Positions 23,940 to 47,747 of a stretch of 64,000 nt of DNA are shown piece after piece; position 1 is the stretch's first letter; every line of letters starts with the position of its first letter. Source of the DNA: an uncultured Acidobacteriota bacterium (GTDB taxonomy: Bacteria > Acidobacteriota > Vicinamibacteria > Vicinamibacterales > UBA2999); NCBI GenBank assembly GCA_963773045.1, contig CAVYZT010000013.1:207137-271136 (forward strand), written 5' to 3'. The notes under the pieces were generated by a model, which was given only the letters and a program-made list of their open reading frames with translations, did not search any database and was not told the DNA's origin. The position numbers and the translations under genes were made by a program.

Positions 23940-24108
23940 TGAGCGAGAGGACGGGTCGTGAGCGGAGGAGTCAGCCGTGTCAGACGGCTGAGCGGGCGAA
24001 TGATCTGCTGCGGTCTCGGCGTCGATAGAGGAACAGCTTACGCACGAACGAACAGTGGGTCAAACGAACATTGCGCGCTGGTTGGTGGCGCCTTCGAGGC
24101 GGGACTGA

Positions 24109-24156
24109 AGTCCCGCCCTACTGACGGACGACAGTCCCGTCCTACTGACGGACGAC
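24109..24156. repeat. 24-bp tandem duplication spanning the stop codon of the propeller gene
   Basis: agtcccgccctactgacggacgac / agtcccgtcctactgacggacgac. A GGGACTGAAGTCCC hairpin lies just outside. Confidence 0.8.
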
Positions 24157-33253: not shown

Positions 33254-35725
33254 CTAGTCGCCGCGCAGCGCGTCGACCGGAGCGATCCGCGCGGCCTTGA
33301 TCGCGGGGGCCGTCACCGCGATCGCGGCGACGATCGCCAGAACCAGCGTCGACGCGGCGAGCGCAACCCCGTCGAACGGGCTCACGCCGAACAGGACTCC
33401 TCGCAGCAGTCGATCGGCCGCGATCGTCAGCACGATCCCGAGCACGATCCCCCCGGCGAGCAGCCGCCCTGCGCCGCTGACGACGAGCCGAATCATCTGA
33501 GACGGCTCGGCACCGATGGCGAGGCGGAGCGCCATCTCGCGTGACCGCTCCGAGACGATCAGCATGAAGAGGCTGTAGAGGCCGACCGCGGCGAGCGTCA
33601 CGGCGGCGGTCGCGAACAGACTCAACATCGTCGCGTCGAGCCGCGGCCGATCGAGCGCGGCATCGAGCACCGCCTGGAGGGGTCGCACGCCGAACACCGC
33701 GCGGCCCGGTTCGATCTCGCCGACGATTCGCCGGAGCGCGCCTGCGAGGGCTCGCGGATCGCTGGTTCGGACGACGTACTCGGGGTCGGGCCAGGCGCCG
33801 GCCGGACTGCAGGTATAGACGTACGGCGCTGGACTTGCGGCGTGGCCGTCTTCGGCCAGATTTCCAAGGATGCCTGTGATCGTGAAATTCGCCCCGCCCG
33901 CCTGCGTGAGCGTCACCGTGCGACCGATGAGGTCCTGTCCGCCGGCGAAAACCTCGACGAAGCGGTGGTTGACCAGCGCCGAGAGCGGGACGCCGCGGCC
34001 GCCGATGCCGAGCGCCGGACATGACGATCCACCGACGAGTTGCGCGCGAATCGCGCGCACGTAGCCGCCGCCGATCATCCGCGTGCCGACCGTCATCGAT
34101 CCGTCCTCGTTCGGGCCGACCAGGCCGCTCACCTTGAACTCATAGCGCAGCGTGGCGCCAGTGGCCGGGAAGAAGTTCGTCAGGCCCGCTGCCTGCACGT
34201 GCGGCAACTGCTCGAGCCTCGAGAGCAGCTCCTGCTGCAGCAGGCCGATGCGCGCGCGGTCTTCGTCCCAGCGCGCGGCGACGTGGAACGTGATCACACT
34301 CGAGGGATCGAAGCCGACGTCGATGCGGGTCAAGTTGGCATAGCTGCGTAGCAACAGCGTGGCCGAACCGACCAGCAAAACGCTCAGCGCCACTTGAGCG
34401 ACGACCAGCAGGCGTTGTACGCGGTGATGTCCGCCGCCGACGGCGCGATTGCCGGCGGCCAGCGCCGGGGTCAGCGTGGCGCGTGTGCTGGTGATCGACG
34501 GGATGAGGCTGAACACGAACGCAGCGAGGACGCTGGTGGCGGCGACAAACGACAGCGCGCGCCAGTCGAGCGCCACCTCGTTGATGCGCGGCGTTCGCGT
34601 GAGGATCGCCGGCATGAGTGACAACAGCCAGGCCGTGAGCAGCGTCCCAAGCGCGCCGCCGGCGACGGCGATCAACAGCCCTTCGCGAACCACCGTGGCG
34701 ACCACCCGCACCCGCGAGGCTCCCAACGCGACGCGCAGCGCGAGCTCTCGCGCGCGACGCTGCATCTGGACCAGCGTCAGCCCCGCGATATTGGCGACGG
34801 CGATCACCCAGAGCGAGGCGACGGCGCCGAGCACGATGACGAGCCCACGCCCGGCATCGCCAACCCGCGCGTCTTTCAGGCCGCGGAGCTGTACCGACCA
34901 GCCAGCGTCGGTCTTGGGAAAGTCCCGCGCTAGCGCGTCCTGCACCGACGCCAGTTCACGCTGGCCCGCGTCGATGGTCACGCCGCGCTTCAGCCGCCCG
35001 ACGCCCTGGACGAAGCGGGCGTTGCGCACGGCCAGAAGGCCGGGAGGCGTTTGCGACGGCAGCCAGACATCGGTCGTCGCGCTCGTGAAGGTCGCGGGCA
35101 TCACGCCGACGATCTCGTAGGATCGCCCGCCGATCTTCAGGGCGTGGCCGATGGCGGCCGGGCTGCCTTGGAATCGCCGCGTCCAGAATCGCTCGCTGAT
35201 GATCGCGGCCCCCGGTCCGCCGAAGGCTTCCTCGGCGTCGGTGAAATACCGGCCGGCGATTGGCGGCGTCGCGAACACGGCGAAGAATCGGGGCTGCACG
35301 CGTCGGCCTTCCAGGCGCTCGGGCTCCGCGCCGCTCGTGTCGGTGACGTTCTCGTTATAGCTGCCCGAGATTCCGGTGAAGCTCTGGCTCAGCCGCTGCC
35401 AGTCTTCCAGCCGGCCGGGCGCGACGAGGCCGATGTCCTGTGCGGCAGGGGAATTGGAACTCGACTCGTAGACGGTCACGAGCCGATCGGAATCGGGATA
35501 CGGCAGCGGCTTGATCAGCACGGTATCCACCAGCGAGAACACCGCCGCGGTGATTCCCGTGCCGAACCCAAGCGTGAGCACGGCCGACGCCAGAAACGCG
35601 GGCCGCCGCCCAAGCGACCGCAGCGCCTGCCGCCAGGCTGAAGACTGAATCCACTGCGACGGCCACTTCCATACGTCCTGGTGACGCGTTGGACGGACGA
35701 CACCTCGGGCGAACCGTTGGCTCAT
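33254..35725 (-). CDS. ADOP-family duplicated ABC permease (MacB-like, two FtsX domains)
   Basis: N-terminal RQALRSLGRRPAFLASAVLTLGFG, two MacB_PCD/FtsX modules, about 820 aa. The ATG 35725 lies inside the terminus of a dispersed repeat. Confidence 0.85.
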   Translation of the reverse strand: MSQRFARGVVRPTRHQDVWKWPSQWIQSSAWRQALRSLGRRPAFLASAVLTLGFGTGITAAVFSLVDTVLIKPLPYPDSDRLVTVYESSSNSPAAQDIGLVAPGRLEDWQRLSQSFTGISGSYNENVTDTSGAEPERLEGRRVQPRFFAVFATPPIAGRYFTDAEEAFGGPGAAIISERFWTRRFQGSPAAIGHALKIGGRSYEIVGVMPATFTSATTDVWLPSQTPPGLLAVRNARFVQGVGRLKRGVTIDAGQRELASVQDALARDFPKTDAGWSVQLRGLKDARVGDAGRGLVIVLGAVASLWVIAVANIAGLTLVQMQRRARELALRVALGASRVRVVATVVREGLLIAVAGGALGTLLTAWLLSLMPAILTRTPRINEVALDWRALSFVAATSVLAAFVFSLIPSITSTRATLTPALAAGNRAVGGGHHRVQRLLVVAQVALSVLLVGSATLLLRSYANLTRIDVGFDPSSVITFHVAARWDEDRARIGLLQQELLSRLEQLPHVQAAGLTNFFPATGATLRYEFKVSGLVGPNEDGSMTVGTRMIGGGYVRAIRAQLVGGSSCPALGIGGRGVPLSALVNHRFVEVFAGGQDLIGRTVTLTQAGGANFTITGILGNLAEDGHAASPAPYVYTCSPAGAWPDPEYVVRTSDPRALAGALRRIVGEIEPGRAVFGVRPLQAVLDAALDRPRLDATMLSLFATAAVTLAAVGLYSLFMLIVSERSREMALRLAIGAEPSQMIRLVVSGAGRLLAGGIVLGIVLTIAADRLLRGVLFGVSPFDGVALAASTLVLAIVAAIAVTAPAIKAARIAPVDALRGD

Positions 35726-35890
35726 TGCCGATTGACTGAACGACCGATCGACCGACTGTTTGGTGATGGCCAATCGGTCGATTGGGTGAATCAATCGGAC
35801 GATTGACGATGGCTCGATCGATTCCCGAAATCCCGAAATCACCCAATCACGAAACAGTCGCTAAATCGGTCGATCGGTCGTTCGGCAATT
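35723..35890. repeat. CGATCG-rich TIR element, full-length copy
   Basis: cattgccgattgactgaacgaccgatcgaccgactgtttgg ... cagtcgctaaatcggtcgatcggtcgttcggcaatt. The termini are inverted repeats sharing ATTGCCGA and ACGACCGATCGACCGA. Confidence 0.8.
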
Positions 35891-46596: not shown

Positions 46597-46694
46597 AATC
46601 TGGAGATCTGGTGACGTCGTGATCTCGTGATCGATCGTGCGATCTGGCGATCTGGTGATCTGGTGAGCGATCGGTTGATCTATCTGGTGATCGA
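46597..46694. repeat. Degenerate 7-8-nt array (GATCTGGY)n
   Basis: gatctggcgatctggtgatctggtgagcgatcggttgatctatctggtgatcg. Confidence 0.8.
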
Positions 46695-46711
46695 ATTGCC
46701 TTGTGAGAGTC

Positions 46712-47014
46712 GTAGGGCGCGACTTTAGTCGTGCCCCTCGATTGGAGTAGGCCACGACTTTAGTCGTGCAGGAGGAGGAATTGGAGTGCCTCTCGAGTGG
46801 AGTAGGGCACGACTTTGGTCGTGCCTCTCGGGTGGAGTAGGCCACGACTTTAGTCGTGCAGGAGGAGGAATTGGAGTGCCTCTCGAGTGGAGTAGGGCAC
46901 GACTTTAGTCGTGCCTCTCGGGTGGAGTAGGCCACAACTTAGTCATATCGCTGAGTGGTGCCATCAGATGCGGGGTCACGTCCGTGCCGAGTAGGGCATG
47001 ACCTTTGTCATGCC
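46712..47014. repeat. REP array, 7 copies of GTAGG-GCAYGAC-TTTA-GTCRTGCC hairpins, including a roughly 90-bp higher-order duplication
   Basis: Copies start at about 46712, 46747, 46802, 46827, 46892, 46927 (degenerate) and 46991. The last is 37 bp upstream of the RAYT start. Confidence 0.9.
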
Positions 47015-47050
47015 ACTCACGGGACCACTGTTTGCACCAAGCAGCGAAGC

Positions 47051-47557
47051 ATGGCTCGACCTGTCCGCCTGCGCGAGGTCTCCTACGCCGGCTTTGCCGC
47101 CTACTTCGTGACGACGTGCACTCTGGATCGCGTATGTGTCTTTGAGAATGTCGAGTTTGGTCGCCTCGTCGCGGACGCACTTCTTTCACACGCTAGAGCG
47201 AATGCGTTTGCAGTTCCTGCGTACTGCCTGATGCCTGACCACGCGCACATCATCATGGTCGGCACACAAGAGAATTCGTCACTGTGCGAATTCGTAAAGG
47301 ACTGGAAACAAGCGTCAGGCTTCCAGTGGAGTCAGCGAGGAAATGGCAAACTCTGGCAGATCGGCTACTGGGATCGCGTGCTCCGAGAAGACGAGGCGAT
47401 TCTATCGGTCGCGCGTTACGTGATCGAGAATCCAGTGCGCGCGAAGCTTGTCAGGGAACCGGCGGAGTATCCACTACTGGGATCGAGCGAGTACACGATT
47501 GCCGAGATTCTTGAAGCAGTCCAGATGAACTGGGGACGTCGGTGGAGATCGAGCTAA
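47051..47557 (+). CDS. REP-associated tyrosine transposase (RAYT, IS200/IS605 TnpA-like Y1 HUH enzyme)
   Basis: HUH motif in CLMPDHAHIIM. Catalytic Tyr context ARYVIENPVRAKL. 168 aa. Flanked by REP arrays. Confidence 0.85.
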   Translation: MARPVRLREVSYAGFAAYFVTTCTLDRVCVFENVEFGRLVADALLSHARANAFAVPAYCLMPDHAHIIMVGTQENSSLCEFVKDWKQASGFQWSQRGNGKLWQIGYWDRVLREDEAILSVARYVIENPVRAKLVREPAEYPLLGSSEYTIAEILEAVQMNWGRRWRSS

Positions 47558-47559
47558 TC

Positions 47560-47720
47560 GGCACGACATGCCCGACGACTCGATGGCATGACTGAAGTCA
47601 TACCCTACGACTCGATGGCATGACTAAAGTCATGCCCTACGACGCGACGACTCGATGGGATGACTGAAGTCATGCCCTACGACACCACGACTCGATGGCA
47701 TGACTAAAGTCATGCCCTAC
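47560..47720. repeat. REP array in the opposite orientation, 4 copies of GGCATGACTRAAGTCATRCCCTAC in a roughly 40-bp tandem unit, plus one partial copy
   Basis: Copies at about 47585, 47617, 47656 and 47697. They are the reverse complement of the upstream GTAGGGCATGAC... type. Confidence 0.9.
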
Positions 47721-47747
47721 GACGCGACGAGTCGCCAGCGTTCGACA

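Follow-up and report, generated by a model that had tools for sequence, protein, structure and literature searches.

Among described REPtrons, in which the gene for a REP-associated tyrosine transposase (RAYT, or TnpA-REP) is flanked by repetitive extragenic palindromes (REPs), those of group 3 or subclass 2.5, represented by the Stenotrophomonas maltophilia REPtron Sm and by Pseudomonas RAYTs (PMC5581495, PMC6006769, PMC8266576), come closest to the locus described here. This locus lies at positions 46712-47720 of a 64,000-nucleotide stretch of DNA (the window; C13:207137-271136, contig CAVYZT010000013.1) from an uncultured soil member of the Acidobacteriota, whose genome (GCA_963773045.1) comprises 7.78 Mb on 19 contigs at 64.5% GC. 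The S. maltophilia group-3 REP consists of GTAG followed by an 8-bp perfect palindrome; its loop positions are indispensable, mismatches in the stem prevent cleavage, and exchanges that keep the stem complementary matter only mildly (PMC8266576). Subclass 2.5 proteins carry the motifs DH[LF]H, WQ and YI[VI]ANP in about 151 aa, and subclass 2.2 proteins carry DHLH, WE and YIHYNP (PMC6006769, Table 1). In E. coli TnpA-REP, GTAG is contacted by W94, Q95, E100, H101 and R104, of which E-to-D and H-to-R replacements are described for subclasses 2.5 and 2.7 (PMC6006769).

REPs with a GTAG foot are reported in Proteobacteria, Cyanobacteria, Chloroflexi and the Planctomycetes-Verrucomicrobia-Chlamydiae (PVC) group, and Acidobacteria are listed only with Y1 genes flanked by terminal inverted repeats (PMC3733652). 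The original prediction for this locus, made from the letters alone, placed RAYTs with inverted GTAG REPs in proteobacteria, which is true but understates this range. Class 3 TnpA-Y1 genes with CnGA-footed structures occur in Acidobacteria, for example in Solibacter usitatus (PMC6006769). GTAG REPs in Acidobacteria are listed in neither PMC3733652 nor PMC6006769. REP clusters reiterated in tandem together with flanking DNA have already been described (PMC3733652).

Results

The RAYT protein

The locus is very probably a well-preserved REPtron, formed by a chromosomal, single-copy, domesticated, vertically inherited class 2 RAYT gene flanked by its cognate REPs, with arrays that are local duplications. 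The gene occupies 47051-47557 on the + strand (stop codon 47555-47557) and encodes 168 aa, including the HUH motif PDHAHII (residues 62-68, with H64 and H66) and ARYVIENP with the catalytic Tyr123. The protein scores 103.4 bits with NCBIfam NF047646 (REP_Tyr_transpos; cut-off 80) and 15.4 bits with the IS200 model NF033573 (cut-off 55); it is therefore a RAYT and not an IS200 TnpA. The only Pfam match is to the general Y1_Tnp domain, at 26.5 bits.

The AlphaFold (AF2) model, built on 22 relatives, has a predicted local distance difference test score (pLDDT) of 89.5. Its first-ranked Foldseek match is 4er8_A (E 3.8e-10, template modelling (TM) score 0.68, root mean square deviation 2.8), the E. 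coli TnpA-REP that is also the closest solved structure by sequence; the IS200, IS608 and ISDra2 TnpA structures fit less well (TM ~0.52). Across the 22 relatives, H64, H66, N127 and P128 do not vary, and Y123 hardly does (at least 90% conserved). Both motifs, HUH and Tyr, align with those of E. coli RayT (read in L100), to which overall identity is only 19-20%; identity to a plasmid-borne Pseudomonas homologue (L101; DHLH / WQ / YIITNP) is 35%. Residues W102, Q103, D108, R109 and R112 align with the E. coli residues that contact GTAG, giving WQ-D-R here against WQ-E-H in E. coli, and the D and R at the E100 and H101 positions are shared with subclass 2.5.

As read from DHAH, WQ and YVIENP, the protein is a member of class 2 (Y---NP) of the TnpA-Y1 family. 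These motifs are closer to those of subclass 2.5 than to those of subclass 2.2, without an exact match to either, since DHAH and YVIENP stand here in place of DH[LF]H and YI[VI]ANP. By motifs and REP shape together, subclass 2.5, or group 3 of Bertels, would be the nearest assignment. The small C-terminal helix is likewise shared with that subclass, whose median length is 151 aa against 168 aa here.

REP arrays on both sides of the gene

Six clear hairpins and one degenerate hairpin precede the gene, all on the + strand, and four clear hairpins and one remnant follow it, all on the - strand, with the GTAG feet pointing outwards from the gene. The hairpin at the locus consists of the GTAG foot and an 8-bp stem, a pattern whose chance expectation in the window is 0.00 (100 shuffles). 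The upstream copies recovered by pattern search and covariance model start at 46712, 46747, 46802, 46837, 46892 and 46991.

Most of the upstream copies lie in an array at 46712-46944 (+ strand; Tandem Repeats Finder, repeat families D1 and D3), where a 90-bp higher-order unit is repeated 2.6 times with 94% matches and a 35-bp period is nested within it. Each unit contains one full REP (GTAGGGCACGAC-TTTA-GTCGTGCC), one weakened REP (GTAGGCCACGAC..GTCGTGCA) and a spacer. The full copies are found at 46712-46735 (GCGCGAC/GTCGTGCC stem with one wobble or mismatch; covariance model 39.6 bits), at 46802-46825 (CACGAC type, loop TTTG; 38.9 bits) and at 46892-46915 (43.3 bits); the last is GTAGGGCACGACTTTAGTCGTGCC, the commonest sequence genome-wide, with nine identical genome copies. 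In the three GTAGGCC copies, beginning at 46747, 46837 and 46927, the stem is reduced to 6 bp or broken. The first two (46747-46769 and 46837-46859) keep a 6-bp stem and score 27.8 bits each, and the third, GTAGGCCACAACTTAGTCATATC at 46927-46949, has lost its hairpin and was recognised by direct reading, having been missed by pattern and model. Nearest the gene stands a CATGAC-type REP with a CTTT loop (46991-47014, + strand; 34.1 bits), which ends 36 nt before the start codon; a promoter scan found no sigma-70-type site between the two.

Downstream, a loop-less remnant on the - strand, reading GGCACGACATGCCCGAC on the + strand, follows directly after the stop codon at about 47560-47576 (direct reading; within the first, 32-nt, unit of repeat family D2). 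It is followed by an array of four CATGAC-type REPs at 47585-47720, arranged in units of about 40 bp with GTAG on the - strand (47585-47608, 47617-47640, 47657-47680 and 47697-47720; pattern search, covariance model 37.5-42 bits). Tandem Repeats Finder delimits this tandem repeat as 47567-47734, with a 40-bp unit present 3.2-4.5 times. Distal upstream copies thus have CACGAC/GTCGTG stems, one of them GCGCGAC, and CATGAC/GTCATG stems occur in the proximal upstream copy and in every downstream copy. No REP lies within the RAYT coding sequence in the covariance model scan of the window.

This layout agrees closely with the original prediction, which had described a 168-aa Y1 transposase-like protein with PDHAHII and YVIENP, seven upstream hairpins, four to five downstream copies in reverse orientation, the same distribution of the CACGAC and CATGAC subtypes, and higher-order units of about 90 bp upstream and 40 bp downstream, all within 46712-47720. 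The coordinates are correct and the counts hold once the degenerate upstream copy and the loop-less remnant are included, although three of the seven upstream hairpins are weakened.

The REP family across the genome

The hairpins beside the gene belong to a dispersed family. A strict pattern, GTAGGGC-N4-CTTYAG-N4-GCC, in which foot, closing pairs and loop are fixed and the N4 blocks are free, matches 45 times on 13 contigs. The N4 blocks are perfectly complementary in 42 of these matches and differ by one mismatch in the other three, against a chance complementarity of 1 in 256 per match, and they form 15 different central stems. The reversed pattern, used as a control, gave 0 matches in every one of the 31 genomes searched. 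With 32 distinct copies as input, a covariance model (short calibration, so that E-values are rough) finds 70 matches at E<1e-3 in the 7.8-Mb genome, 10 at the RAYT locus and 60 elsewhere, the dispersed copies lying on most contigs. The sole dispersed member elsewhere in the window is GTAGGGCGGGACTTCAGTCCCGCC at 24098-24121 on the - strand (40.9 bits).

REPs of the window score 28-43 bits when read on the correct strand, compared with 12-16 bits on the opposite one; the REP is therefore strand-asymmetric, as the substrate of a RAYT should be. Among the distinct copies, double compensatory changes at four stem pairs fill 40 cells, compared with 9.7 in shuffles; this set was selected for pairing, and the test free of that bias is the complementarity of the N4 blocks in the strict pattern. 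CACGAC and CAGGAC are the most frequent stems, followed by GCGCCAC. A genome search confines the CATGAC stem to the RAYT locus, save for one foot-less relic at C15:192553.

Strict REPs are almost all extragenic, with only one pair in a long open reading frame. A REP pair at C6:169916-169973 (CACTGC and CACCAC stems, -/+ orientation) lies within an open frame of 2196 nt with a third-position GC (GC3) of 0.82, and is a possible in-frame intragenic REP insertion. A looser hairpin definition, allowing a one-mismatch foot and any pyrimidine-rich loop, gave 100 matches, 19 of them in long open reading frames; these were mainly GC-rich coding noise, and the definition was dropped, the strict pattern and the covariance model being preferred. 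Under the loose definition, 57 of 73 REP clusters are singletons. As to a replication-strand bias, REP orientation counts are 32 versus 24 overall and 15/23 for singletons, and the GC skew (mostly <0.01) is too weak to orient replichores.

In 9 of 13 close REP dimers the GTAG feet lie outside, with gaps of 3-10 nt, and the partners of these dimers have different stems. They are therefore likened to the Y/Z bacterial interspersed mosaic elements (BIMEs) of E. coli, which also pair two different REP types, rather than to REP doublets forming hairpins (REPINs), in which two inverted copies of one REP pair into a single long hairpin. Compared with P. fluorescens REPINs (PMC3116915), the dispersed close inverted doublets with outward GTAG feet are alike, and the doublet-bearing composite described next is itself repeated; the doublet partners here, however, almost always differ in stem (for example CAGGAC with GCGCCAC), so that each folds alone and no long hairpin forms.

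A composite element of 102-112 bp, resembling a miniature inverted-repeat transposable element (MITE), includes an outer inverted repeat, CTCACTTGAGTTGAC ... GTACTCGACTCAAGTGA, that encloses such a heterodimer (CAGGAC and GCGCCAC, 5 nt apart, with their GTAG feet on the outside). Its copies lie at C6:112745-112860, C5:311131-311242, C15:60953-61054, C1:20105-20206 and C12:5057-5156, with a partial copy at C18:104611-104677; these 5-6 copies are 87-95% identical, which suggests that the REP doublet was copied as part of a larger unit. Head-to-tail CAGGAC REP arrays far from any RAYT gene occur at C13:499577-499729 (four copies, 43-bp period) and C7:265361-265432 (two copies, 48-bp period); REPs have thus been amplified in tandem outside the REPtron too.

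Inheritance of the locus

The genome holds a single copy of the RAYT gene, and its closest paralogue, 49% identical, lies at C13:804709-805146. The orthologue in a JGI metagenome contig, L098, is 80% identical and has the same neighbours, an OmpR-type response regulator and an SBP_bac_3 gene, the latter 72% identical. The ratio of nonsynonymous to synonymous substitution rates (dN/dS) between the two RAYT genes is 0.116. The shared site and this ratio together indicate that the gene is vertically inherited, stably placed and under purifying selection. Among 72,556 plasmid records, 22 have RAYT matches, all of them distant (<36% identity).

Upstream of the L098 gene are three different REPs (a CACGAC copy, a CAGCAC copy and a hybrid whose stem contains a T·G wobble), and downstream is a single CATGAC REP. 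Since a CATGAC REP stands 3' of the gene in both lineages, this type predates their split. The tandem arrays and the octamer-rich tract described below are absent from the syntenic L098 site, and the arrays therefore arose within the lineage of this genome.

In L098 the RAYT frame runs into the downstream REP (823-845), which supplies the final codons (..PGHD) as well as the TGA stop, the latter from its loop (CTGAAG). The hybrid REP at L098 176-199, GTAGAGCATGAC-TTCA-GTCGTGCC, joins a CATGAC 5' arm to a CACGAC-type 3' arm, which gives the wobble, and looks like an intermediate in a compensated change between the two subtypes.

The paralogue belongs to a second REPtron of the same genome, at G000:C13:804609-805260 (L001 1333-1991), which encodes a 158-aa RAYT with PDHVHLL, WQ and YVILNP. 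Its hairpins, GTGGA-GGCGACCCC-TTCTT(T)-GGGGTCGCC, form an inverted doublet upstream and one - strand copy downstream. About five such GTGGA-footed hairpins exist genome-wide, and this REP family is thus nearly silent.

Homologous loci in related genomes

Relatives of the protein down to ~40% identity come from metagenome-assembled genomes of Vicinamibacterales and other Acidobacteriota. Counting GT[AG]G-footed hairpins at the 67 homologous loci with enough flanking sequence, 25 combine an upstream hairpin on the + strand with a downstream one on the - strand; the hairpin is upstream only in 11/67 and downstream only in 5/67. At least three copies in the same orientation stand on one side in 11 of the 67 (for example L053, L007, L020, L034 and L019). 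The proximal upstream hairpin usually lies 32-47 nt from the start codon, and in many of the loci the start of the downstream REP precedes the extrapolated gene end by 3-26 nt. The loops are predominantly TTTA and TTCA, and stems vary from genome to genome.

Genomes of the same genus have the same REP architecture with other stems, one of them with 60 copies of GTAGGGCACCCCTTTAGGGGTGCC, which flank its RAYT too. Four genomes (G002, G007, G024 and G029) carry 15-47 REPs of this architecture with no match to the RAYT at E<=1e-10; their REPs may have persisted after the loss of the enzyme, or its sequence may have diverged too far for a match. For G007, the sequence searched lacked 999 bases, in which the gene may lie.

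Other features of the locus

Between the start of the response-regulator gene and the first REP, at 46598-46700, lies a tract of about eight octamer units (ATCTGGTG and variants). By short-query BLAST, the genome contains more than 70 similar tracts. This one has no hairpin fold (z = -0.4) and no evident similarity to the CGATCG-rich element at 35723-35890. The part of the RAYT coding sequence that separates the HUH and Tyr motifs contains an inverted repeat at 47272-47293 (7 bp, GAATTCG/CGAATTC; 8-nt loop). This repeat is probably incidental, since it lacks a GTAG foot and the L098 orthologue does not conserve it. The RAYT gene and the arrays have a GC content of 56-58%, compared with 63-69% in neighbouring genes, and the low GC of the gene could reflect an old foreign origin or weak codon adaptation.

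Comparison with described systems

The REP of this genome resembles those of group 3 and subclass 2.5 in being short, with GTAG directly at an 8-bp perfect palindrome. Foot and stem together measure 4 + 8 = 12 nt, inside the 10-13 nt reported for subclass 2.5, and the stem is perfect in 42/45. The motifs D-H-u-H, WQ and Y---NP are shared, as are the presence of several divergent RAYTs per genome, each with its own REP type, and a conserved loop combined with a stem that is free in sequence but must pair. The differences lie in the host, which is an acidobacterium (Vicinamibacterales) rather than a xanthomonad or pseudomonad, in a loop of 4 nt (TTYA) against 3 nt in REPtron Sm, and in about 60-70 REP copies against hundreds.

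The E. coli REPtron (rayT/yafM, with Y and Z2 REPs in BIMEs; PMC3333891, PMC3479197) has the same protein fold and likewise a single-copy gene bracketed by inverted GTAG-footed REPs, as read in L100. In contrast to the perfect stems here, however, E. coli REPs are long imperfect palindromes whose bulge is needed for recognition. E. coli also has inverted REP pairs on each side of the gene, whereas here all upstream copies are + and all downstream copies -. The acidobacterial Y1 genes with terminal inverted repeats (TIRYTs) of Terriglobus, Koribacter, Acidobacterium and Granulicella (PMC3733652) and the Solibacter class 3 genes (PMC6006769) share the phylum, the Y1/HUH superfamily and a low gene copy number, but they have long terminal inverted repeats or atypical CnGA-foot structures and a Y----Q-type motif, in place of GTAG REPs and Y---NP.

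Discussion

By analogy with the described enzymes, the RAYT would bind the folded top strand of the REP in single-stranded DNA. It may read the 5' GTAG foot through the block W102-Q103...D108-R109...R112, together with the closing GGC/GCC pairs and the C-TTYA-G loop, and would then use Tyr123 and the metal bound by HUH to cut and rejoin nearby. Of the four central stem positions the enzyme would require pairing alone, which would account for the presence of 15 compensated variants in one genome; in its kept pairing and free central stem, the REP family matches the published group-3 biochemistry. Because the flanking hairpins lie on opposite strands, the gene itself is not mobilisable by the enzyme as an IS200-type unit.

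Several points weigh against the REPtron interpretation as stated. The evidence of synteny comes from one relative, represented by one metagenome contig of 1.8 kb. The subclass was assigned from motifs and from 35% identity with one homologue from Pseudomonas rather than from a tree of labelled references. The gene-adjacent CATGAC type is found nowhere else as an intact GTAG-footed REP; it is therefore not the type that spread, and it is not obvious that the dispersed copies derive from the flanking ones. Finally, the REP copy number is low, at about 60-70 in 7.8 Mb against >100 in classic cases.

The tandem arrays are lineage-specific local duplications of whole REP-plus-spacer units, and slippage or unequal recombination between neighbouring REPs is the somewhat favoured origin. 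A different origin, through the RAYT itself, seems doubtful, at perhaps one chance in a few; the enzyme would repeatedly cut neighbouring REPs on single-stranded DNA and transfer strands between them, adding units head to tail beside the gene. This origin draws support from the array-free L098 site, with its three different upstream REPs and one downstream, from the recurrence of same-orientation arrays beside the RAYT in 11/67 homologous loci, and from an intact gene under purifying selection. The 90- and 40-bp units, however, include non-REP spacer and degraded REPs, and the nested 35/90-bp periodicity upstream is typical of slippage or unequal crossing-over. The four-copy, 43-bp-period array on C13 stands far from any RAYT, and reiterated REP clusters with flanking DNA are already a known general feature (PMC3733652). 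Unit identity is moreover only 89-94%, and the duplications are therefore not very recent. The original prediction of an active REP generator caught amplifying REPs locally thus stands as far as the REP system and the expansion of the arrays relative to L098 are concerned; ongoing activity and amplification do not follow, the spacer-containing units fitting slippage or unequal recombination equally.

The REPs that touch the gene may have a role of their own. It is tentatively proposed that, throughout a RAYT clade widespread in Vicinamibacterales and other Acidobacteriota, recognition by the enzyme is limited to the GTAG foot, the closing GGC/GCC pairs and the C-TTYA-G loop, and that the gene-touching REPs are separately constrained as cis-regulators of RAYT expression and are not sources of new REPs. 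The basis for this idea is the private CATGAC type 3' of the gene in two species, the spacing of about 36 nt to the start codon and the overlap with the stop codon. If it is true, the four central stem pairs drift freely by compensated change, giving the 15 variants seen in 45 copies here and stems that differ between the related genomes, which would amount to a natural experiment in systematic evolution of ligands by exponential enrichment (SELEX).

Returning to the dispersed REPs as cognate elements of the RAYT, an improbable alternative is that they are primarily host regulatory elements, such as terminators or mRNA stabilisers, maintained by selection without regard to the enzyme, with the RAYT an inactive relic among them. 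Their almost wholly extragenic position, often between convergent genes, their low copy number and their perfectly paired stems would suit such elements, as would the four genomes with 15-47 REPs and no RAYT match, although the lack in G007 is unsafe given the 999 missing bases. Against it, the dN/dS of 0.116 and the intact catalytic residues argue for a functional protein, the strand-asymmetric GTAG foot and the loop are conserved yet needless for a simple terminator, and the repeated composite with its REP pair points to copying rather than independent origin.

An autonomous IS200/IS605-type insertion sequence with the hairpins as its left and right ends, to which the Pfam Y1_Tnp match, the hairpins on both sides of the gene and a gene GC of 56-57% below the 65-69% of its neighbours might point, is effectively refuted by the NF033573 score, a Tyr motif of Y---NP rather than Y---Q (PMC6006769 Table 1), hairpins on opposite strands instead of the same strand, the absence of tnpB and of a second gene copy in the genome, the response regulator and SBP gene as neighbours, the same chromosomal site in a relative whose neighbour gene has diverged to 72%, and hairpins dispersed alone without the gene.

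The remaining claims of the original prediction hold. The gene is a RAYT flanked by inverted GTAG REPs, as its NF047646 score of 103 bits and the opposite-strand flanks show, and the proposed genome-wide count returned about 60 dispersed copies. The prediction had named clustering with ordinary IS200 TnpA, or hairpins occurring nowhere else in the genome, as findings that would speak against it; the protein is not IS200-like (NF033573 15 versus 55), and the hairpins do occur elsewhere. The probable acidobacterial host is also borne out, since the named homologues belong to Vicinamibacterales and other Acidobacteriota.

In conclusion, the understanding of REPtrons is unchanged by this locus; the JGI and NCBI pipelines already name such genes RayT, and current annotation would already name this one. 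The finding extends canonical GTAG-REP/RAYT systems to the Acidobacteriota, as a taxonomic extension and not as a new kind of system. It also provides a compact natural data set on what a group-3-like RAYT needs for recognition, with an invariant foot, closing pairs and loop around a freely covarying central stem, in agreement with published SELEX results.

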